The notes under the pieces are model-generated. The model saw only the letters and a program-made list of their open reading frames with translations, did not search any database and was not told the DNA's origin. DNA of 64,000 bases, taken from the NCBI RefSeq assembly GCF_003334785.1, contig NZ_QOWV01000001.1; one strand, 5' to 3'. How positions within the stretch are numbered: the first letter of the stretch is position 1; every line of letters begins with the position of its first letter. The position numbers and the translations under genes are program-made. Shown piece after piece: positions 19,289-31,047 of the stretch. The stretch comes from Escherichia coli (lineage in GTDB: Bacteria > Pseudomonadota > Gammaproteobacteria > Enterobacterales > Enterobacteriaceae).

Positions 19289-22200
19289 TTAATCGGTGTT
19301 GCTTTTTTCCGCTTTTCCGGCCATTTGTGCCAGGAAGTCATAGCGTTTTTGCAAATCAGCTGCAGCATCTTTCCATAACTGTTCTGCCACTTCTGGCTGC
19401 TGCGAATTCAGCCGACGGAAACGTTGCTCGTGAAGTAACGTTTCTTCCAGTGCTTCTGACGGCGGGCGTGAATCCAAGGCCAGCGGCAGTTTGCCTTCAT
19501 CGGCACGACGCGGATCAAAGCGATATAGCGGCCAGAAGCCGGTAGCTGTGAGTTGGCGCATCTGGTCGTGGCTGAGTGCCAGATCGTAACCATGCTCTTC
19601 ACACGGGCTATAAGCAATGATCAGCGATGGCCCCGGATACGCTTCCGCTTCCTGAATCGCTTTCACCGTCTGGTTCAGCTGCGCGCCGAGAGAAATCTGC
19701 GCCACATAAACATGACCGTACATCATCATACTGACGCCAAGATCTTTACGCGCTTTACGTTTGCCGTGCTCGCCAAATTTAGTTACTGCACCCAGCGGTG
19801 TCGCTTTCGACGCCTGACCACCGGTGTTGGAATAGCATTGCGTATCCAGCACCAGAATGTTGACGTTTTCCGTCAAACTCAATACATGATCCAGACCGCC
19901 AAAGCCGATATCGTAAGCCCAGCCATCACCACCAATCAGCCAGATTGATTTTTCCACCAGTGCATCTGCATCACGTAGCAGTTCATGTGCTTCGGCAACA
20001 TCGTTGAGTTGCTGGCGTAAAGCTGCAACCTGTTCACGACGAACCTCTGGCGTGGCGTCTGATTTCAACGCCGTCAGTAATTCCGCCGGGATTTTATCGG
20101 CAAATTGATCCAGCAGACGCAGCACGCGGACACGGTGTTGATCGACCGTCAGGCGGAAACCAAGGCCAAATTCGGCATTATCTTCAAATAGAGAGTTCGC
20201 CCATGCCGGCCCACGACCGTTGGCATCGGTGGTATACGGTGTAGAGGGCAGGTTACCGCCATAAATTGAAGAACAGCCAGTGGCGTTAGCGATCAACATC
20301 CGGTCGCCATAGAGCTGAGTCAGTAATTTAATATACGGCGTCTCGCCACAACCGGAGCAAGCACCTGAATATTCAAACAGCGGTGTAATCAGCTGCGATG
20401 TACGAATATCAATACGTTCCAGTTTGCTACGGTCGATTTCTGGCAGGTTGAGGAAGAAATCGTAATTGATTTTCTCTTCTTCGACATGTTCCAGGCGAGA
20501 CATCATATTGATGGCTTTAATCTCTGGATTCTGACGGTCTTTCGCCGGGCAAACTTCGACGCACAGGTTACAACCGGTGCAATCTTCCGGTGCCACCTGC
20601 AAGACATATTTCTGCCCGCGCATATCACGCGATTTCACATCCAGCGAATGCAGGCTGGCAGGGGCGTTTTCCATCGCTTCAGGCGGCACCACTTTTGCGC
20701 GAATAGCTGAGTGTGGGCAAGCGGCAACGCAGTGGTTACATTGGGTACAGAGTTCCTCTTTCAAGATGGGGATCTCTTCGGCGATATTGCGTTTTTCCCA
20801 GCGCGTAGTGCCCATCGGCCAGGTGCCGTCTGGCGGCAGCGCCGAAACGGGGAGGGCGTCACCAAGCCCGGCGAGCATCGCAGCGGTTACGGTTTTCACG
20901 AAATCAGGGGCGGCATCGGAAACCACTGGCGGTCGATTGGCGCTGTGCGGATTTACCGGTTGCAACGGAACTTCTTCTACGGATTCACGCGCCAGCGCCA
21001 GAGCCTGCCAGTTGCGTTCCACCAGATCCTGGCCTTTGCTACTGTAACTTTTGGCAATCGCACCCTGCAATTCTGCGAGGGCGCTATCGCCAGGCAGAAT
21101 TTGCGTCAGATGGAAAAAAGCCATCTGCATGACGGTATTAATACGGGCCGCCAGGCCACATTCGCGGGCGATTTTCGCCGCGTTAATCACATAGAAGCGC
21201 GCTTTTTTCTGGTTTAACACGGCCTGAACTTCTTGCGGCAAGCGCGACCACACTTCATCTGCGCTGTACGGCGTGTTGAGCAGGAAAATGCCGCCAGGTT
21301 TTAAACGCTCAGCCATCTGATATTTATCGATAAACTGCAACTGGTGGCAGCCAACAAAATCAGCCTGGGAAATGAGATAAGCGGAACGAATCGGCTGTTC
21401 GCTCACTCGAAGGTGAGAAACCGTCAGGCCGCCCGCCTTTTTGGAGTCGTAAACAAAATAGCCCTGTGCGTACCACGGCGTGGAATTACCGATAATCTTG
21501 ATATTGTTTTTGGTCGCGGAAACGCTGCCATCACTACCAAGGCCATAAAACAAGGCTTCCAGTTTCGCCGAGTTTGGCAGGGTGTTTTCCGGCAACGGCA
21601 GTGACAGATTGGTCACATCATCGTAAATACCAACCGTAAAGCGCGCTTTCGGTTTAGCCGCGTTGAGCTCGGCAAATACCGCCAGTACACAGTCTGGGCC
21701 AAATTCTTTGGATGAAAGACCATAGCGCCCACCAATGACACGGGGCAGAGTTTCGCGCTCGCCATTATTAAAGGCTTCTGCCAGTGCGGTCATTACATCC
21801 AGATAGAGCGGTTCTGCCTGGGCACCGGGTTCTTTGGTTCTGTCCAGTACCGCCACGCTGCGTACGGATCCCGGCAGAGCTTGCAGTAAATGTTTAGCGG
21901 AGAAGGGGCGGTACAGGCGAACTTTCAGCACGCCAACTTTTTCGCCACGGGTTAGCAATTCATCAACCACTTCTTCACAGGTGCCAATGGCAGAGCCCAT
22001 CAGGATAATCACCCGTTCCGCTTGCGGATGCCCGTAATATTCAAACGGCTGATACTGACGACCTGTCGCGGCAGAGAAATCATTCATCGCCTGTTCAACA
22101 TGGTCATAGACCGCGTTGTACCATGGGTTGGTGGCTTCGCGAGACTGGAAATAAGTGTCAGGATTGGCGGACGTACCGCGGATCACCGGATGTTCCGGGT

Positions 22201-22813
22201 TGAGTGCCCGGGCGCGATGAGCATCAATTTCGACCTGCGGCATGAGATCAAGAATCGTGTCATCGGCCAGCGGGACAATTTTATTGATTTCGTGGGACGT
22301 GCGGAAACCATCAAAGAAATGAATAAATGGCACGCGGCTTTTCAGCGTCGCGATTTGCGAAATGAGAGCAAAGTCTTGCGCTTCCTGGACGTTTGCTGCA
22401 CACAACATCGCGCAACCCGTCTGGCGCACCGCCATAACGTCGGAATGATCGCCAAAAATAGAGAGTGCATGTGTGGCAACGGTACGTGCCGCTACATGCA
22501 GGACAAACGGTGTTAGTTCGCCTGCCAGTTTGTACAGCGTCGGGATCATCAGCAGCAAACCCTGCGATGACGTAAACGATGTTGAAAGGGCACCCGTCTG
22601 CAAAGCGCCATGCACGGTAGCGATAGCACCCGCTTCCGACTGCATTTCAACCACGCGTGGTGTGTCTCCCCAAACGTTCTTTAAGCCGTTTCCGGCCCAG
22701 GCATCAGCCTGTTCTGCCATCGTGGAACTGGGGGTAATAGGGTAGATGGCGATAACTTCACTGGTGCGAAATGCGACCGAAGCAACCGCGCCATTACCGT
22801 CAATAGTAATCAT
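19289..22813 (-). CDS. ydbK: Pyruvate:flavodoxin/ferredoxin oxidoreductase (PFOR, YdbK)
   Basis: 1174-aa ORF; two 4Fe-4S ferredoxin CxxCxxCxxxCP motifs (CTQCNHCVAACP, CTGCNLCVEVCP) and TPP-binding region. Confidence 0.95.
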   Translation of the reverse strand: MITIDGNGAVASVAFRTSEVIAIYPITPSSTMAEQADAWAGNGLKNVWGDTPRVVEMQSEAGAIATVHGALQTGALSTSFTSSQGLLLMIPTLYKLAGELTPFVLHVAARTVATHALSIFGDHSDVMAVRQTGCAMLCAANVQEAQDFALISQIATLKSRVPFIHFFDGFRTSHEINKIVPLADDTILDLMPQVEIDAHRARALNPEHPVIRGTSANPDTYFQSREATNPWYNAVYDHVEQAMNDFSAATGRQYQPFEYYGHPQAERVIILMGSAIGTCEEVVDELLTRGEKVGVLKVRLYRPFSAKHLLQALPGSVRSVAVLDRTKEPGAQAEPLYLDVMTALAEAFNNGERETLPRVIGGRYGLSSKEFGPDCVLAVFAELNAAKPKARFTVGIYDDVTNLSLPLPENTLPNSAKLEALFYGLGSDGSVSATKNNIKIIGNSTPWYAQGYFVYDSKKAGGLTVSHLRVSEQPIRSAYLISQADFVGCHQLQFIDKYQMAERLKPGGIFLLNTPYSADEVWSRLPQEVQAVLNQKKARFYVINAAKIARECGLAARINTVMQMAFFHLTQILPGDSALAELQGAIAKSYSSKGQDLVERNWQALALARESVEEVPLQPVNPHSANRPPVVSDAAPDFVKTVTAAMLAGLGDALPVSALPPDGTWPMGTTRWEKRNIAEEIPILKEELCTQCNHCVAACPHSAIRAKVVPPEAMENAPASLHSLDVKSRDMRGQKYVLQVAPEDCTGCNLCVEVCPAKDRQNPEIKAINMMSRLEHVEEEKINYDFFLNLPEIDRSKLERIDIRTSQLITPLFEYSGACSGCGETPYIKLLTQLYGDRMLIANATGCSSIYGGNLPSTPYTTDANGRGPAWANSLFEDNAEFGLGFRLTVDQHRVRVLRLLDQFADKIPAELLTALKSDATPEVRREQVAALRQQLNDVAEAHELLRDADALVEKSIWLIGGDGWAYDIGFGGLDHVLSLTENVNILVLDTQCYSNTGGQASKATPLGAVTKFGEHGKRKARKDLGVSMMMYGHVYVAQISLGAQLNQTVKAIQEAEAYPGPSLIIAYSPCEEHGYDLALSHDQMRQLTATGFWPLYRFDPRRADEGKLPLALDSRPPSEALEETLLHEQRFRRLNSQQPEVAEQLWKDAAADLQKRYDFLAQMAGKAEKSNTD

Positions 22814-23086
22814 ATGACACCCTTACATTGCGCAAATGAGGGGCGCACGAAATTGCTGCGCGCCCAGTAGTAATCTTTCAATTTTAGCAAATGGCTTTCT
22901 TCTGCATTTTCGCTTTTGTGTCCCCCACATCAGCGTAATGAATGTTTTGATCAAACAGAGGGCAAAAAAATAGCCATAAAAAAGTAAAAATGCGGGGCAA
23001 CGCGCAGGACAGCTCTCGACGCCGCCCTCTGTGCTGCCTATTATTTATGGCGGTGTCGTTTGGCTTGAAGATCAGAGGAAGAAAAG

Positions 23087-23353
23087 ATGCGAGCAGCGTT
23101 TTGGGTAGGGTGTGCCGCTTTATTGTTGTCGGCGTGTAGTAGTGAACCTGTTCAGCAGGCGACTGCCGCGCACGTAGCGCCAGGTTTAAAAGCGTCGATG
23201 TCCAGTAGTGGAGAAGCAAATTGTGCAATGATCGGCGGTTCGCTTTCTGTTGCCCGTCAACTGGATGGTACGGCGATTGGGATGTGTGCATTACCCAACG
23301 GCAAACGCTGTAGCGAACAGTCACTTGCCGCCGGGAGCTGTGGCAGCTATTAA
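23087..23353 (+). CDS. ydbJ: Small lipoprotein YdbJ (DUF333)
   Basis: 88-aa ORF with lipobox LSAC. Confidence 0.8.
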   Translation: MRAAFWVGCAALLLSACSSEPVQQATAAHVAPGLKASMSSSGEANCAMIGGSLSVARQLDGTAIGMCALPNGKRCSEQSLAAGSCGSY

Positions 23354-23772
23354 TTCATTAAATCCGCCAGCTTATAAGTTAATGTCTGTTTTGCGGTCGC
23401 CAGCGTTAACTGGTTCGCGGTCAGATCCACTTGTGCACCTTCTTTCAGCATTTCGCTAATGGTGTTATCGAGTTCATTAAGCTGCGGGTTAGCGCACATC
23501 ATACGGGTCATTGCCAGCCCTTTGGCTGTCAGTTCACCATTAGACAGTTTGCCTTCACCGCTAAAGCGGTTACACATGCTGCCGGAAATCATCATTTTTT
23601 CACCAAAGCTGATTTCTGGCGGATTTTTATCGCTGGTCACGGGCTTACCGTTTACGCTTTCCAGCACAAAGCGATGATGCTGTAGCTGTTCTGGCGTAAC
23701 AGCAATTTTGTCATTACTTACACATCCCGCCATCAGCAGGCTTAGCGCAACAAACGCGGCTACTTTCTTCAT
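23350..23772 (-). CDS. hslJ: Heat-inducible lipoprotein HslJ (META domain)
   Basis: ORF 23350..23784; start at MKKVAAFVALSLLMAGC (lipobox), 140 aa. Confidence 0.85.
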   Translation of the reverse strand: MKKVAAFVALSLLMAGCVSNDKIAVTPEQLQHHRFVLESVNGKPVTSDKNPPEISFGEKMMISGSMCNRFSGEGKLSNGELTAKGLAMTRMMCANPQLNELDNTISEMLKEGAQVDLTANQLTLATAKQTLTYKLADLMN

Positions 23773-23882
23773 TGTGGTTCTCAATTACAGTTTCTGACTC
23801 AGGACTATTTTAAGAATAGAGGATGAAAGGTCATTGGGGATTATCTGAATCAGCTCCCCTGGAATGCAGGGGAGCGGCAAGA

Positions 23883-24872
23883 TTAAACCAGTTCGTTCGG
23901 GCAGGTTTCGCCTTTTTCCAGATTGCTTAAGTTTTGCAGCGTAGTCTGAGAAATACTGGTCAGAGCTTCTGCTGTCAGGAATGCCTGGTGCCCGGTAAAC
24001 AGCACGTTGTGGCAGGCAGACAGGCGACGGAATACGTCATCCTGGATCACGTCGTTGGATTTATCTTCAAAGAATAGATCGCGTTCGTTCTCATACACGT
24101 CCATACCCAACGAACCAATTTTCTGATTTTTCAGCGCTTCAATTGCTGCCTGAGAATCAATCAATGCACCGCGACTGGTATTGACGATCATCACGCCATT
24201 TTTCATCTGTTCGAAGGCGGCTTCGTTCAACAGATGATAGTTTTCCGGTGTCAGCGGGCAGTGCAGAGAGATAACGTCTGATTCAGAGAACAGGGTTGGC
24301 AGATCGACATACTCCACACCGAGTTCCAGCGCCGCTGCACTTGGATACGGATCGAATGCCAGCAGACGCATACCAAAACCTTTCAGAATGCGCAGCATCG
24401 CCACACCGATTTTACCGGTACCGATAACGCCTGCCGTTTTGCCATACATAGTAAAGCCGGTCAGACCTTCCAGAGAGAAGTTAGCATCACGGGTACGCTG
24501 ATACGCGCGGTGAATACGGCGGTTCAGCGTCATCATCATACCGATGGCGTGTTCAGCAACGGCCTCTGGATCATAGGCTGGAACACGGACTACTTTCAGC
24601 CCCAGTTCTTTTGCCGCGTCAAGGTCGACGTTATTGAAACCGGCACAGCGCAGGGCGATATATTTAACGCCGTGCTTTTTCAGCTCTTCCAGCACCGGGC
24701 GGCTGCCGTCATCGTTTACGAAAATACATACCGCTTCGCAGCCATTGGCAGTTTTAGCGGTTTTTTCCGTCAGCAGAAAGTCAAAAAATTCCAGCTCAAA
24801 GCCAAAGGACTCGTTCACCTGTTGCAGGTACTTCTTGTCGTACTGTTTTGTGCTATAAACGGCGAGTTTCAT
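23883..24872 (-). CDS. ldhA: Fermentative D-lactate dehydrogenase (NAD-dependent 2-hydroxyacid dehydrogenase)
   Basis: 329-aa ORF with NAD-binding GxGxxG (GVIGTGKIG). Confidence 0.95.
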   Translation of the reverse strand: MKLAVYSTKQYDKKYLQQVNESFGFELEFFDFLLTEKTAKTANGCEAVCIFVNDDGSRPVLEELKKHGVKYIALRCAGFNNVDLDAAKELGLKVVRVPAYDPEAVAEHAIGMMMTLNRRIHRAYQRTRDANFSLEGLTGFTMYGKTAGVIGTGKIGVAMLRILKGFGMRLLAFDPYPSAAALELGVEYVDLPTLFSESDVISLHCPLTPENYHLLNEAAFEQMKNGVMIVNTSRGALIDSQAAIEALKNQKIGSLGMDVYENERDLFFEDKSNDVIQDDVFRRLSACHNVLFTGHQAFLTAEALTSISQTTLQNLSNLEKGETCPNELV

Positions 24873-25079
24873 AAGACTTTCTCCAGTGATGTTGAATCAC
24901 ATTTAAGCTACTAAAAATATTTTACAAAATTTCAAATTTAATTGAAAGCTATGGCGATATTGAAAAATTCATCAACAACTATGCTTAGTGTAGGCGCAAC
25001 CTTCAACTGAACGGTTAAACATGCCACAATACCCGTATTGAATGCTTAATTTTTCGCTAAATCAGGATATTAACTACCC

Positions 25080-27719
25080 ATGCTGGGTAAATATAAAGCC
25101 GTTCTCGCGCTGTTATTACTGATTATTCTTGTGCCGTTGACGCTGCTGATGACGCTCGGGCTGTGGGTTCCCACGCTGGCGGGCATCTGGCTACCGCTCG
25201 GGACACGTATTGCATTAGATGAAAGCCCACGCATTACGCGTAAAGGTTTAATCATTCCCGATCTCCGTTATCTGGTGGGAGATTGTCAGCTTGCGCATAT
25301 CACCAACGCCAGCCTTTCACATCCCAGCCGCTGGTTATTGAACGTCGGCACGGTAGAACTTGATTCTGCTTGTCTGGCGAAATTGCCGCAGACGGAGCAA
25401 TCGCCAGCCGCTCCAAAAACACTCGCGCAGTGGCAGGCCATGCTGCCTAACACCTGGATCAATATCGATAAACTGATTTTTTCTCCCTGGCAGGAATGGC
25501 AGGGAAAACTCTCTCTCGCATTAACCTCTGATATCCAGCAACTGCGTTATCAGGGCGAAAAAGTTAAATTTCAAGGCCAGCTGAAAGGGCAACAACTTAC
25601 AGTCAGCGAACTGGATGTCGTCGCGTTTGAAAATCAGCCGCCGGTAAAACTGGTGGGGGAATTTGCTATGCCGCTCGTGCCGGATGGACTTCCTGTAAGT
25701 GGGCATGCTACTGCGACGTTAAACTTGCCGCAGGAACCGTCACTGGTGGATGCCGAGCTGGACTGGCAGGAAAATAGCGGGCAATTGATCGTGCTGGCAC
25801 GGGATAACGGCGATCCGTTGCTCGATTTGCCGTGGCAAATTACTCGTCAACAATTGACCGTAAGCGATGGTCGCTGGAGCTGGCCGTATGCAGGTTTTCC
25901 TTTGAGTGGCCGACTGGGTGTCAAAGTCGACAACTGGCAGGCAGGGCTTGAGAACGCTCTGGTCAGCGGACGACTGAGTGTGCTGACCCAGGGGCAAGCG
26001 GGTAAGGGCAACGCGGTGCTTAATTTTGGCCCAGGAAAATTAAGCATGGATAACAGTCAGCTGCCTCTGCAGCTGACCGGTGAAGCGAAACAGGCGGACC
26101 TCATTTTATATGCCCGTTTACCTGCGCAGCTAAGTGGAAGTCTGTCTGACCCAACGCTGACCTTTGAGCCAGGCGCGTTACTTCGTTCAAAGGGAAGAGT
26201 CATCGATTCGCTGGACATCGATGAAATCCGCTGGCCTTTAGCGGGTGTAAAAGTCACCCAACGTGGTGTTGACGGACGTTTGCAGGCCATCTTGCAGGCG
26301 CATGAAAATGAACTGGGCGATTTCGTGCTGCATATGGATGGGCTGGCGAATGATTTTCTCCCTGACGCTGGCCGCTGGCAGTGGCGCTACTGGGGAAAAG
26401 GGAGTTTTACACCGATGAATGCCACCTGGGATGTCGCAGGAAAAGGTGAGTGGCATGACAGCACGATTACGCTGACCGATCTCTCCACCGGTTTCGACCA
26501 GTTACAATACGGTACGATGACGGTAGAAAAGCCGCGATTAATTCTCGACAAGCCCATCGTCTGGGTACGTGACGCACAGCATCCCTCCTTTAGCGGCGCG
26601 CTGTCACTGGACGCCGGGCAAACGCTGTTCACTGGCGGCAGTGTGTTACCGCCATCAACCTTAAAATTTAGCGTCGATGGGCGCGATCCTACCTATTTCC
26701 TCTTTAAAGGCGATTTACATGCTGGTGAGATTGGCCCGGTTCGGGTAAATGGTCGCTGGGACGGTATTCGTCTGCGCGGTAACGCCTGGTGGCCTAAACA
26801 ATCACTGACCGTATTCCAGCCGCTGGTGCCACCCGACTGGAAGATGAACTTACGCGATGGTGAACTGTATGCTCAGGTTGCATTTTCTGCTGCGCCTGAA
26901 CAAGGATTCCGCGCGGGAGGACACGGCGTGTTGAAAGGCGGTAGTGCCTGGATGCCAGATAATCAGGTTAACGGTGTCGATTTTGTCCTGCCTTTCCGTT
27001 TTGCCGATGGAGCCTGGCATCTGGGGACTCGCGGCCCCGTTACGTTGCGAATTGCCGAAGTGATTAATCTGGTGACAGCGAAAAATATTACGGCTGATTT
27101 GCAAGGGCGTTATCCGTGGACTGAAGAAGAACCCTTGCTGTTGACTGATGTTAGCGTCGATGTGTTAGGCGGTAACGTACTGATGAAACAATTACGTATG
27201 CCGCAACATGACCCGGCGCTGTTGCGGCTGAATAATCTCTCATCCAGCGAACTGGTTAGCGCCGTCAATCCGAAACAATTCGCCATGTCCGGGGCATTTA
27301 GTGGTGCACTGCCGTTATGGCTGAACAATGAAAAATGGATTGTGAAAGATGGCTGGCTGGCGAATAGCGGGCCGATGACATTGCGACTGGATAAAGACAC
27401 TGCGGATGCGGTGGTAAAAGACAATATGACTGCGGGTTCAGCAATTAACTGGTTGCGCTATATGGAAATTAGCCGTTCATCGACAAAAATTAATTTAGAT
27501 AATCTCGGTTTATTAACCATGCAGGCCAACATTACAGGTACCAGTCGCGTTGATGGTAAAAGCGGTACGGTAAACCTTAATTACCATCATGAAGAGAATA
27601 TTTTTACGCTGTGGCGCAGTTTACGCTTTGGCGATAATCTCCAGGCATGGCTGGAGCAGAACGCACGTCTGCCGGGAAATGACTGTCCGCAAGGAAAAGA
27701 GTGTGAGGAAAAACAATGA
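25080..27719 (+). CDS. ydbH: AsmA-like/TamB-like large envelope protein YdbH
   Basis: 879-aa ORF with N-terminal membrane anchor then long beta-rich periplasmic region; first gene of ydbH-ynbE-ydbL. Confidence 0.9.
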   Translation: MLGKYKAVLALLLLIILVPLTLLMTLGLWVPTLAGIWLPLGTRIALDESPRITRKGLIIPDLRYLVGDCQLAHITNASLSHPSRWLLNVGTVELDSACLAKLPQTEQSPAAPKTLAQWQAMLPNTWINIDKLIFSPWQEWQGKLSLALTSDIQQLRYQGEKVKFQGQLKGQQLTVSELDVVAFENQPPVKLVGEFAMPLVPDGLPVSGHATATLNLPQEPSLVDAELDWQENSGQLIVLARDNGDPLLDLPWQITRQQLTVSDGRWSWPYAGFPLSGRLGVKVDNWQAGLENALVSGRLSVLTQGQAGKGNAVLNFGPGKLSMDNSQLPLQLTGEAKQADLILYARLPAQLSGSLSDPTLTFEPGALLRSKGRVIDSLDIDEIRWPLAGVKVTQRGVDGRLQAILQAHENELGDFVLHMDGLANDFLPDAGRWQWRYWGKGSFTPMNATWDVAGKGEWHDSTITLTDLSTGFDQLQYGTMTVEKPRLILDKPIVWVRDAQHPSFSGALSLDAGQTLFTGGSVLPPSTLKFSVDGRDPTYFLFKGDLHAGEIGPVRVNGRWDGIRLRGNAWWPKQSLTVFQPLVPPDWKMNLRDGELYAQVAFSAAPEQGFRAGGHGVLKGGSAWMPDNQVNGVDFVLPFRFADGAWHLGTRGPVTLRIAEVINLVTAKNITADLQGRYPWTEEEPLLLTDVSVDVLGGNVLMKQLRMPQHDPALLRLNNLSSSELVSAVNPKQFAMSGAFSGALPLWLNNEKWIVKDGWLANSGPMTLRLDKDTADAVVKDNMTAGSAINWLRYMEISRSSTKINLDNLGLLTMQANITGTSRVDGKSGTVNLNYHHEENIFTLWRSLRFGDNLQAWLEQNARLPGNDCPQGKECEEKQ

Positions 27720-27901
27720 AAATTTTACTGGCTGCGTTGACGTCATCTTTTATGCTGGTTGGCTGTACGCCTCGCATTGAAGTCGCTGCACCTAAGGAAC
27801 CGATCACTATCAATATGAACGTTAAAATTAAGCATGAGATCATCATCAAGGCAGACAAAGATGTCGAAGAGCTGCTTGAAACTCGTAGCGATCTTTTCTG
27901 A
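27716..27901 (+). CDS. ynbE: Small lipoprotein YnbE
   Basis: 61-aa ORF, lipobox LVGC, start overlaps ydbH stop. Confidence 0.8.
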   Translation: MKILLAALTSSFMLVGCTPRIEVAAPKEPITINMNVKIKHEIIIKADKDVEELLETRSDLF

Positions 27902-27905
27902 GGTG

Positions 27906-28235
27906 ATGATGAAGAAAACATTACTTCTTTGTGCGTTTCTTGTTGGGCTGGTAAGCAGCAATGTAATGGCATTGACTCTGGATGAAGCCAGAACTCAGGG
28001 GCGGGTAGGTGAAACATTTTACGGTTATCTGGTTGCGCTGAAAACGGATGCTGAAACAGAGAAATTAGTAGCCGACATTAATGCCGAACGTAAAGCGAGT
28101 TACCAACAACTGGCAAAGCAAAATAATGTGTCGGTAGATGATATCGCGAAACTCGCCGGGCAAAAGCTCGTAGCTCGGGCCAAACCGGGGGAATATGTAC
28201 AAGGGATAAACGGTAAATGGGTGCGAAAATTTTAA
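27906..28235 (+). CDS. ydbL: Periplasmic protein YdbL (DUF1318)
   Basis: ORF 27834..28235; start placed at MMKKTLLLCAFLVGL (signal peptide) just after the ynbE stop. Confidence 0.8.
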   Translation: MMKKTLLLCAFLVGLVSSNVMALTLDEARTQGRVGETFYGYLVALKTDAETEKLVADINAERKASYQQLAKQNNVSVDDIAKLAGQKLVARAKPGEYVQGINGKWVRKF

Positions 28236-28370
28236 TAGCAAAACCGCAATATCGGGATAACGCTACAGGAGAAGGCGATTGATCTATTTTCCTGAAACAA
28301 GGTGAATATTCAAAAACTCCTGTCAAATTGCCTTTTGCCCTGAAAAATGCATAGTCAAATATCTGTTTTA

Positions 28371-28407
28371 ACTAATTGGCGTTGCAGTACATGCAACGCC
28401 AATTAGT
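28371..28407. terminator. 13-bp perfect-stem hairpin between convergent ydbL and feaR
   Basis: AATTGGCGTTGCA-gtaca-TGCAACGCCAATT; no clear U-tract, so either a terminator or REP-like structure. Confidence 0.4.
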
Positions 28408-29312
28408 TAGCGGAATTTACGTCGATACTCGCCTGGCGTCATCCCAAAGCGTTGCTTAAATACCGTTGAAAAATGACTCTGGTCAGAAAATCCCCAATGA
28501 AAGCCGATGCCTGCCAGTTTTTCATCATCTGCGGCATGGCGAATCGCATCTGCACAAAAATCGAGACGACGGTTACGAATATATTGCGCGACTACCAAAC
28601 CTTTATCGGCAAACATTCGGTACAAACTACGTACTGACATACCTGTCTCTCCGGCTATCCACTCCGGGCGTAATATCTCTTCGCGAATATTATCGTCTAT
28701 CAACGTAACCACTTTTTGAAACTGACGTTCACGACGAGGTTGAACAGATTCCCGCTGATGAAGTACCGGGCGCAGCAGACACACCATCGCCTGTAGCGCA
28801 GCTTCACTTTCTGTTTCAGAAAGTGCCGGATTATTCATGCTCTCCTGTAACAGGCGATGACTGAGTTGCACCATGGGTAAGTCAGCGTCCAGTCTTTCTG
28901 CGCAGACAGGTTTTTGATGGGGAAAATATTGTTCCAGCAGAGTGCGTGGCAAAAGTAATGAAATCTGTTTAGAAGACTCCTGCCAGTAAAGCGAACAGGG
29001 GCGTGAGGCATCGAGTAACGTAATATCGCCAGCGCCAATCTGCACCTGACGCTCATCCTGCTCCATTATTGCCTGACCACTAAGCTGAAAAACGGTGTAA
29101 AACCAGGCATCGTCGCTGCCTTTTACTTCCTGCCAGGTGCGGGATAAATTCACCCCGCTGGTTGTCACGGTACTCAGCTTTAGTCCTTTGGCAAAATGCG
29201 TGTCCAGTACACCCGTGTAACGCTCAGTCAGCAGGCGTCCGGTAAAATTTCCGCATACCTGATTGATTTGGGAAAGCCATTGCTGAAACTCATTATCCAC
29301 TGCGGGGTTCAT
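28407..29312 (-). CDS. feaR: AraC-family activator FeaR (phenylethylamine/phenylacetaldehyde catabolism)
   Basis: 301-aa ORF with C-terminal AraC-type HTH; divergent from feaB. Confidence 0.9.
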   Translation of the reverse strand: MNPAVDNEFQQWLSQINQVCGNFTGRLLTERYTGVLDTHFAKGLKLSTVTTSGVNLSRTWQEVKGSDDAWFYTVFQLSGQAIMEQDERQVQIGAGDITLLDASRPCSLYWQESSKQISLLLPRTLLEQYFPHQKPVCAERLDADLPMVQLSHRLLQESMNNPALSETESEAALQAMVCLLRPVLHQRESVQPRRERQFQKVVTLIDDNIREEILRPEWIAGETGMSVRSLYRMFADKGLVVAQYIRNRRLDFCADAIRHAADDEKLAGIGFHWGFSDQSHFSTVFKQRFGMTPGEYRRKFR

Positions 29313-29431
29313 GGCACGTTTTCGCTCTGTGAAATGTATTTTTATTGTTGCATTTGTGTTGCAATAAACGAAGCTAATGAGCCTGACTATAGGAAATAAG
29401 TCTTGTCAGGCATAGAGACATAAGCGGTTAT

Positions 29432-29477
29432 TGTCACGATTTGCGGAGCTTGTCACAGCTGACAAAGCGAATGTCAC
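29432..29477. promoter_or_regulatory. Three direct TGTCAC repeats spaced about 20 bp in the feaR-feaB divergent promoter region (candidate FeaR sites)
   Basis: TGTCAC at 29432, 29451, 29472; spacing of about two helical turns is typical of AraC-family direct-repeat sites. Confidence 0.35.
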
Positions 29478-29547
29478 AGCGAAAAAAGTGACTTTTCTTG
29501 TCGCTGCGTACACTGAAATCACACTGGGTAAATAATAAGGAAAAGTG

Positions 29548-31047
29548 ATGACAGAGCCGCATGTAGCAGTATTAAGCCAGGTCCAACAGTTTCTCGATCG
29601 TCAACACGGTCTTTATATTGATGGTCGTCCTGGCCCCGCACAAAGTGAAAAACGGTTGGCGATCTTTGATCCGGCCACCGGGCAAGAAATTGCGTCTACT
29701 GCTGATGCCAACGAAGCGGATGTAGATAACGCAGTCATGTCTGCCTGGCGGGCCTTTGTCTCGCGTCGCTGGGCCGGGCGATTACCCGCAGAGCGTGAAC
29801 GTATTCTGCTACGTTTTGCTGATCTGGTGGAGCAGCACAGTGAGGAGCTGGCGCAACTGGAAACCCTGGAGCAAGGCAAGTCAATTGCCATTTCCCGTGC
29901 TTTTGAAGTGGGCTGTACGCTGAACTGGATGCGTTATACCGCCGGGTTAACGACCAAAATCGCGGGTAAAACGCTGGACTTGTCGATTCCCTTACCCCAG
30001 GGGGCGCGTTATCAGGCCTGGACGCGTAAAGAGCCGGTTGGCGTAGTGGCGGGAATTGTGCCATGGAACTTTCCGTTGATGATTGGTATGTGGAAGGTGA
30101 TGCCAGCACTGGCAGCAGGCTGTTCAATCGTGATTAAGCCTTCGGAAACCACGCCACTGACGATGTTGCGCGTGGCGGAACTGGCCAGCGAGGCTGGTAT
30201 CCCTGATGGCGTTTTTAATGTCGTCACCGGGTCAGGTGCTGTATGCGGCGCGGCCCTGACGTCACATCCTCATGTTGCGAAAATCAGTTTTACCGGTTCA
30301 ACCGCGACGGGAAAAGGTATTGCCAGAACTGCTGCTGATCACTTAACGCGTGTAACGCTGGAACTGGGCGGTAAAAACCCGGCAATTGTATTAAAAGATG
30401 CTGATCCGCAATGGGTTATTGAAGGCTTGATGACCGGAAGCTTCCTGAATCAAGGGCAAGTATGCGCCGCCAGTTCGCGAATTTATATTGAAGCGCCGTT
30501 GTTTGACACGCTGGTTAGTGGATTTGAGCAGGCGGTAAAATCGTTGCAAGTGGGACCGGGGATGTCACCTGTTGCACAGATTAACCCTTTGGTTTCTCGT
30601 GCGCACTGCGACAAAGTGTGTTCATTCCTCGACGATGCGCAGGCACAGCAAGCAGAGCTGATTCGCGGGTCGAATGGACCAGCCGGAGAGGGGTATTATG
30701 TTGCGCCAACGCTGGTGGTAAATCCCGATGCTAAATTGCGCTTAACTCGTGAAGAGGTGTTTGGTCCGGTGGTAAACCTGGTGCGAGTAGCGGATGGAGA
30801 AGAGGCGTTACAACTGGCAAACGACACGGAATATGGCTTAACTGCCAGTGTCTGGACGCAAAATCTCTCCCAGGCTCTGGAATATAGCGATCGCTTACAG
30901 GCAGGGACGGTGTGGGTAAACAGCCATACCTTAATTGACGCTAACTTACCGTTTGGTGGGATGAAGCAGTCAGGAACGGGCCGTGATTTTGGCCCCGACT
31001 GGCTGGACGGTTGGTGTGAAACTAAGTCGGTGTGTGTACGGTATTAA
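29548..31047 (+). CDS. feaB: Phenylacetaldehyde dehydrogenase FeaB
   Basis: ORF 29545..31047; ALDH-family catalytic Cys region ([10 protein letters not shown]) and ELGGK motif; AAGGA Shine-Dalgarno before ATG 29548. Confidence 0.9.

Follow-up and report, generated by a model that had tools for sequence, protein, structure and literature searches.

The ydbH-ynbE-ydbL operon in a K-12-like Escherichia coli strain, a locus of the proposed intermembrane phospholipid bridge, with a rare YnbE E39K allele

The route by which phospholipids reach the outer membrane of Gram-negative bacteria was a long-standing gap, and the protein pair YdbH-YnbE provides one of the three routes, which are redundant. 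The question raised by the locus described here is what one copy of the genes concerned, ydbH, ynbE and ydbL, can add to that picture. The copy lies on a 64,000-nucleotide (nt) stretch of Escherichia coli DNA (contig NZ_QOWV01000001.1), which is referred to below as the window and along which all positions are numbered. Open reading frame (ORF) analysis identified three intact co-directional genes at 25080-28235 on the plus strand:

25080-27719, plus strand: ydbH ORF, ATG to TGA, 879 amino acids (aa).
27716-27901, plus strand: ynbE ORF, ATG to TGA, 61 aa.
27909-28235, plus strand: ydbL, 108 aa, stop TAA, product matching PF07027 and start as in RefSeq; an alternative in-frame ATG at 27906 would give 109 aa.

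[quoted passage not shown] This is an already well-studied and near-universal core operon of the species, whose parts, protein contacts and ydbH/ynbE coupling are published. The locus therefore contributes nothing new on the phospholipid route itself; its added value is confined to one cheaply testable flag, a rare substitution in YnbE (E39K).

The identity of the operon was established by comparison with E. coli K-12 MG1655. Megablast of positions 24873-28406 gave ~100 % identity over 100 % coverage, and the RefSeq names of the matching K-12 genes are ydbH, ynbE and ydbL. The K-12 operon (b1381-b1383 region) and the window share the gene order, an ATGA overlap between the first two genes and corresponding coordinates, as well as the flanking genes, with a divergent ldhA upstream and a convergent feaR downstream. 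An open frame of 879 codons has a probability of ~(61/64)^879, or roughly 5e-19, of arising by chance. All three frames are open and uninterrupted, as the first-pass annotation had stated in calling the trio intact. The YdbH and YdbL proteins are each 100 % identical to those of K-12, and E39K in YnbE is the single amino-acid change between the two operons. Three single-nucleotide polymorphisms (SNPs) separate the window from MG1655 over 9.5 kb, one silent in ldhA, one giving FeaR I136V and one giving YnbE E39K.

The segment 24873-28406 was present over at least 80 % of its length in 5410 of 5426 complete E. coli genomes, nearly always as a single copy, and eight of the 5426 had no match to the ydbH-ydbL segment at all. 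Five matches to the segment in the complete-genome collection were to plasmid-labelled records.

The largest product, YdbH, was assigned to its family with high scores. It matches PF11739 (YdbH-like) in Pfam at E=3.6e-291 over model positions 1-892 of 893, and scores 1400.9 bits against the NCBIfam equivalog NF007971, for which the cut-off is 824. In Kyte-Doolittle profiles with 19-residue windows, values above 1.6 were confined to residues 1-22 (peak 2.95), and the start of the protein is predicted to anchor it in the inner membrane:

25086-25187, plus strand: ydbH codons 3-36, N-terminal hydrophobic helix (predicted inner-membrane anchor), from hydropathy and from model helices 3-24 and 26-36.

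Relatives of YdbH numbered 598 at E≤0.001 among 1.84 billion representative proteins, and 32 full-length relatives (24-65 % identity) formed the alignment used for structure prediction. The resulting AlphaFold2 (AF2) model had a mean predicted local distance difference test score (pLDDT) of 86.7 and a predicted template modelling score (pTM) of 0.66. In this model, helices within residues 3-36 are followed by 54 beta-strands (median length 10) between residues 42 and 840, after which a helix (841-862) leads into a disordered tail. The mean odd/even hydropathy difference along the strands was 2.41, compared with 1.58 +/- 0.17 in within-strand shuffles, and the highest of 1000 such shuffles reached 2.14. 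This alternation in the modelled strands is what a sheet hydrophobic on one face would show. A barrel was considered as the fold and rejected, the model being an open meander with a single N-terminal anchor.

This topology also bears on the legacy name of the family, 'DctA-YdbH / Dicarboxylate transport', which would make YdbH a dicarboxylate-transport protein. The description persists on many entries for the YdbH family in the AlphaFold database (AFDB), but a single N-terminal helix ahead of ~800 residues of beta-strand is not the topology of a polytopic transporter, Pfam now uses the name 'Intermembrane phospholipid transport protein YdbH', and all genetic and biochemical work on the protein points to the cell envelope. 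The predicted topology and the published genetics together effectively refute the transporter reading, to which we attach almost no credence.

The assignment of YdbH as AsmA-like, which the first-pass annotation had proposed, stands at the level of the family, with the PF11739 match, the anchor and the amphipathic beta domain all present; the link to the superfamily was not obtained independently. The AsmA-like clan is Pfam CL0401, with six E. coli paralogues including YdbH (PMC8593681). Comparison of the YdbH profile with a single E. coli TamB sequence by hhalign gave a probability of 3.2 %, which lends no independent AsmA-like support. A cross-match to DUF748 was weak, at E=0.25 for the present YdbH and at E≤0.001 in one of 33 homologues, and no chorein-N domain was found in YdbH with Pfam. 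No chain in the Protein Data Bank (PDB) matched either the YdbH sequence or the 33-sequence YdbH profile. Foldseek searches with the model gave only low-TM matches in the PDB (LptD, ApoB100); in AFDB50 the best 50 matches were all models of the YdbH family, with TM 0.7-0.87. A full-length TamB structure (9xdc) is present in the PDB and is absent from both match lists. The AsmA-like assignment is thus supported by Pfam clan curation together with published remote-homology and AlphaFold work, our own searches being not decisive. Domain analysis, which had been put forward as the means of overturning the AsmA-like architecture, revealed nothing contradictory to it: an N-terminal anchor and a long amphipathic beta domain were seen.

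The two smaller products were likewise as described at first reading, namely a 61-aa lipoprotein with the lipobox LVGC and a DUF1318 protein bearing a signal peptide. YnbE matches PF13617 (YnbE-like Lipoprotein_19) at E=5.8e-16, and the RefSeq name of the product is YnbE family lipoprotein. A strand motif of the ITINMNV type is conserved among the YnbE homologues examined, and a sequence search of the PDB with YnbE found nothing. YdbL matches DUF1318 (PF07027) at E=2.2e-31, and its residues 22-108, the mature part, are identical to PDB 28oj_A, 'Probable chaperone-like protein YdbL'. The targeting signals of the two proteins are as follows:

27755-27766, plus strand: lipobox L14-V15-G16-C17 of ynbE with Thr at +2, by pattern match; Cys17 is present in 118 of 120 homologues.
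27909-27971, plus strand: ydbL codons 1-21, predicted signal peptide with cleavage at VMA|LT and a hydrophobic core spanning residues 3-25; the alignment with 28oj_A begins at residue 22.

These proteins have an extensive published biology. YhdP, TamB and YdbH are redundant, triple loss is synthetically lethal with defects in outer-membrane lipid homeostasis, single ydbH mutants have no phenotype, and the three proteins have been proposed to transport phospholipids between the inner and outer membranes (PMC8593681). YdbH and YnbE form a bridge between the two membranes by beta-strand augmentation, in work that includes cross-links and proline mutants (PMC11126948). In the published models the YnbE strand extends the hydrophobic groove, with residues I30-I38 engaged with YdbH and I30-I44 in YnbE-YnbE contacts; YnbE multimerises, its function is lost when proline pairs are placed in the strand, and the pair K37P/E39P is dominant-negative (PMC11126948). 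YdbL is not essential and modulates YnbE in a chaperone-like manner (PMC11126948). It binds the C-terminal helix of YnbE, with a predicted interface at K45-F61, and is protected by YnbE from DegP (10.64898/2026.03.16.712125). In P. aeruginosa, YdbH function likewise requires YnbE (PMC12447247). The proposed involvement of the trio in phospholipid transport, redundant with YhdP and TamB, which had been given at first reading, is thereby documented (PMC8593681; PMC11126948).

In the mechanism proposed for the locus, the N-terminal helix of YdbH would sit in the inner membrane, and its long all-beta domain, with a hydrophobic groove, would extend across the periplasm. YnbE would be held in the outer membrane by its lipid anchor and would join a strand (~I30-I44) onto the last one of YdbH, completing the bridge from inner to outer membrane as a monomer or a short stack. 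The acyl chains of phospholipids would slide along this YdbH-YnbE bridge, redundantly with TamB(-TamA) and YhdP. YdbL, secreted to the periplasm, would bind the C-terminal helix of YnbE and limit its amyloid-like runaway multimerisation. The ratios of the three proteins would be set by tight gene spacing, with ATGA termination-reinitiation coupling ynbE to ydbH, and with ydbL placed 7 nt after ynbE behind a Shine-Dalgarno sequence of its own. Experiments by others have shown the redundancy and the synthetic lethality, the contacts of YnbE with YdbH and with YdbL, the multimerisation of YnbE and the ydbH/ynbE coupling; we infer the phospholipid cargo, which way it flows, how many YnbE copies a bridge contains and the coupling of ydbL.

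The elements relevant to translational coupling are the following:

27716-27719, plus strand: ATGA in which the ynbE start codon (27716-27718) overlaps the ydbH stop codon (27717-27719).
27705-27709, plus strand: Shine-Dalgarno GAGGA within the ydbH 3' end, with 6 nt between it and the ynbE ATG.
27900-27903, plus strand: ydbL Shine-Dalgarno GAGG, sharing bases with the ynbE stop (TGAGG), 5 nt from the ATG at 27909 and 2 nt from that at 27906.

The overlapping stop and start noted at first reading are thus present as a shared ATGA, and the translational coupling read from them has been measured on the same junction in reporter experiments (PMC6728339; PMC10666635). In reporter fusions, a stop codon placed upstream in ydbH abolished translation of the ynbE reporter, and the Shine-Dalgarno sequence was found to be an absolute requirement for reinitiation (PMC6728339). 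The efficiency of coupling dropped steeply when the stop codon was moved away (PMC10666635). These results transfer to the present strain since the window is identical to K-12 over the -99..+30 fragment used in the constructs. Folding of this -99..+30 junction RNA gave a minimum free energy (MFE) of -30 kcal/mol, no more stable than shuffled sequences (z=+0.73), and the 'stable local structure' suggested in PMC6728339 was not reproduced from fold energy alone.

For the second junction, the first-pass annotation had given a gap of 4 bp. ydbL opens with two tandem in-frame ATGs, at 27906 and 27909, and the 4-bp value holds only for the first; at the second, better-supported start the gap is 7 nt. 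RefSeq places the start at the second ATG (27909; 108 aa, 7-nt gap), and the preprint on the YdbL structure numbers its residues (W104, K107) in agreement with the 108-aa form (10.64898/2026.03.16.712125). The start at 27909 is favoured because RefSeq, the Shine-Dalgarno spacing and the preprint numbering agree on it. Gaps of -8..+10 nt have been treated as predictive of coupling (PMC10666635), and the 7-nt gap falls inside this class, which suggests from the spacing that ydbL would be coupled to ynbE. No experiment on the ynbE/ydbL junction was found in the literature.

The one amino-acid difference from the K-12 operon falls within the functional strand of YnbE:

27830-27832, plus strand: ynbE codon 39, AAG (Lys) here versus GAG (Glu) in K-12, from a G-to-A SNP at 27830.

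The exact 57-mer around position 27830 was found in 2 of the 5040 complete E. coli genomes matching the ynbE probe, JKHS016 and AST198, both from Japan, in which YnbE is WP_032183018.1 (WP_000698145.1 in K-12). Over 43.5 kb the window differs from JKHS016 by 7 mismatches and 1 gap, and from AST198 by 11 mismatches. In a public collection of 15 billion proteins the E39K allele was found on 213 contigs, versus at least 1000 for the K-12 form, and this recurrence on 213 contigs indicates a real minor lineage allele rather than a sequencing error. A separate difference between the window and JKHS016 concerns nifJ/ydbK (19289-22813, minus strand, 1174 aa), which is intact here and annotated as frameshifted in that genome.

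Among 120 cluster representatives, position 39 of YnbE is Glu in 119 and Asp in one; the six distant homologues all have Glu or Asp there, always followed by His. The position is therefore acidic in 126 of the 126 homologues examined. The residue is inside the strand needed for docking to YdbH and for stacking of YnbE, where it forms half of the K37P/E39P pair, and it is outside the predicted YdbL interface K45-F61. Compared with K-12, neither YdbH nor YdbL carries a compensating change.

These observations raise the possibility that the bridge in this strain is weakened or altered, E39K changing YnbE multimerisation or YdbH docking and being tolerated through TamB and YhdP. The low frequency of the allele among complete genomes, the reversal of charge at a position that is acidic throughout, its place in the I30-I44 strand in which K37P/E39P is dominant-negative, and the lack of a compensating change in YdbH or YdbL are all in line with such an effect, as is the weak selection expected on the ydbH system because single ydbH mutants have no phenotype. 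Nevertheless, the substitution of Glu by Lys is far milder than a double proline, and position 39 continues the alternating polar positions of the strand and is predicted to be solvent-exposed rather than groove-lining. The predicted YdbL interface (K45-F61) also excludes it, and the occurrence of E39K on 213 public contigs and in two finished genomes shows that it circulates in a viable lineage. An altered bridge is on this balance unlikely. E39K is most likely neutral or mildly deleterious and tolerated through TamB/YhdP redundancy. A more specific possibility, that it is a natural separation-of-function variant affecting the length of the YnbE multimer or the docking to YdbH, is suggested by the reversal of charge at an always-acidic residue beside the invariant His40 in the stacking strand, and is put forward here only as a tentative and rather improbable one. 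If E39K were a true separation-of-function allele, it would offer a handle on how many YnbE copies make up a working bridge.

The conservation of the operon beyond E. coli was assessed in the context of six distant YdbH homologues (26-38 % identity), giving seven loci. A Lipoprotein_19 gene is directly downstream of ydbH in all seven, at a spacing of -17 to +1 nt, and the ATGA overlap is identical in four of them. No ydbL homologue was found by tblastn in any of the six distant loci with downstream sequence. The Pasteurellaceae-type loci (L005, L007 in CP006954.1, L008, L009 and L010) have ynbE after ydbH and no ydbL, and carry, upstream of ydbH, a gene for a polytopic membrane protein of ~272 aa (PF27206, HI_1241), the stop codon of this gene overlapping the start of ydbH. 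The product of this gene may be a lineage-specific inner-membrane partner of YdbH. On this gene-content comparison, ydbH-ynbE is the conserved core and ydbL a lineage-restricted accessory, since Lipoprotein_19 was found in seven of seven loci and ydbL in none of six. The accessory status of ydbL agrees with the published finding that YdbL is not essential.

Taken as a whole, the reading of the locus as the known operon with the proposed bridge mechanism is the best explanation, at a probability of about 0.88. Several points weigh against it. The authors of the bridge study state that direct biochemical proof of phospholipid transfer by YdbH-YnbE is lacking (PMC11126948). YdbH is predicted to be too short, at ~180 Å, for a periplasm of ~250 Å, and the modelled complex of YdbH with one YnbE (~180 Å) is likewise shorter than the periplasm (~250 Å) (PMC11126948). 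The trio is not universal, given the six distant loci without a ydbL homologue. In the present strain, E39K affects a near-invariant acidic residue of the functional strand, and full activity of this YnbE is not guaranteed.

The shortness of the predicted complex also bears on an account in which the bridge is real and its essential job is something other than bulk anterograde phospholipid transport, such as structural tethering of the inner to the outer membrane, retrograde or selective lipid flow, or an aid to a different pathway of outer-membrane biogenesis. TamB, which also influences the assembly of some beta-barrel proteins, provides a further argument in that direction. Such a role fits less well with the lethality of the triple mutant and its defects in outer-membrane lipid homeostasis, or with the amphipathic strands of YdbH, which are consistent with a hydrophobic groove, and we regard it as improbable. 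The proposed transport bridge remains our preferred explanation.

The boundaries of the operon were predicted from the spacers on either side:

24942-24968, plus strand: candidate sigma-70 promoter TTGAAA-15-AAAAAT for ydbH--ydbL, in the 207-nt divergent ldhA/ydbH spacer.
28369-28409, no strand assigned: inverted repeat with perfect 18-bp arms around a 5-nt loop, located between the convergent ydbL and feaR genes and overlapping the feaR stop codon.

The upstream candidate corresponds to the TTGAAA-15-AAAAAT element that genomic SELEX with RpoD holoenzyme assigned to ydbH--ydbL as a constitutive promoter (PMC3946193). It is a weak candidate because of its 15-nt spacer and poor -10 hexamer. A consensus scan for promoters and terminators picked out no site in the ldhA-ydbH spacer or downstream of ydbL; its total counts equalled the expectation from shuffled sequence. 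Downstream, the RNA of the 171-nt ydbL/feaR spacer (28236-28406) folds at -59.7 kcal/mol (z=-6.3 vs shuffles). The repeat at 28369-28409 is not a canonical intrinsic terminator, since there is no U-run beside it on either strand. An Rfam search over 22000-31000 at E≤1 returned only a chance microRNA match on the downstream hairpin and no family. The repeat is likely a 3'-end hairpin bounding the operon, and it may act as a 3'-end stabiliser or a transcription barrier. The SNPs in the neighbouring genes are at 24357 for the silent change in ldhA and at 28907 (codon 136) for FeaR I136V.

Close to the YdbH-YnbE bridge are the other two members of the redundant set. TamB and YhdP, which also belong to the AsmA-like clan (CL0401) of repeating beta-groove proteins, resemble YdbH in their N-terminal anchor in the inner membrane and their long beta-groove domain in the periplasm, and share with it an essential, redundant function in lipid homeostasis of the outer membrane. 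They are longer, at 1259 aa for TamB and 1266 aa for YhdP compared with 879 aa for YdbH. TamB, too, requires an outer-membrane partner (TamA); YdbH reaches the outer membrane via a small strand-adding lipoprotein rather than an Omp85 barrel. For the prevention by YdbL of runaway beta-strand stacking of YnbE, the analogy drawn by the authors is with CsgC and CsgA (PMC11126948). Beyond bacteria, the eukaryotic bridge-like lipid transfer proteins (VPS13, ATG2 and BLTP1/LPD-3) are among the closest known systems.

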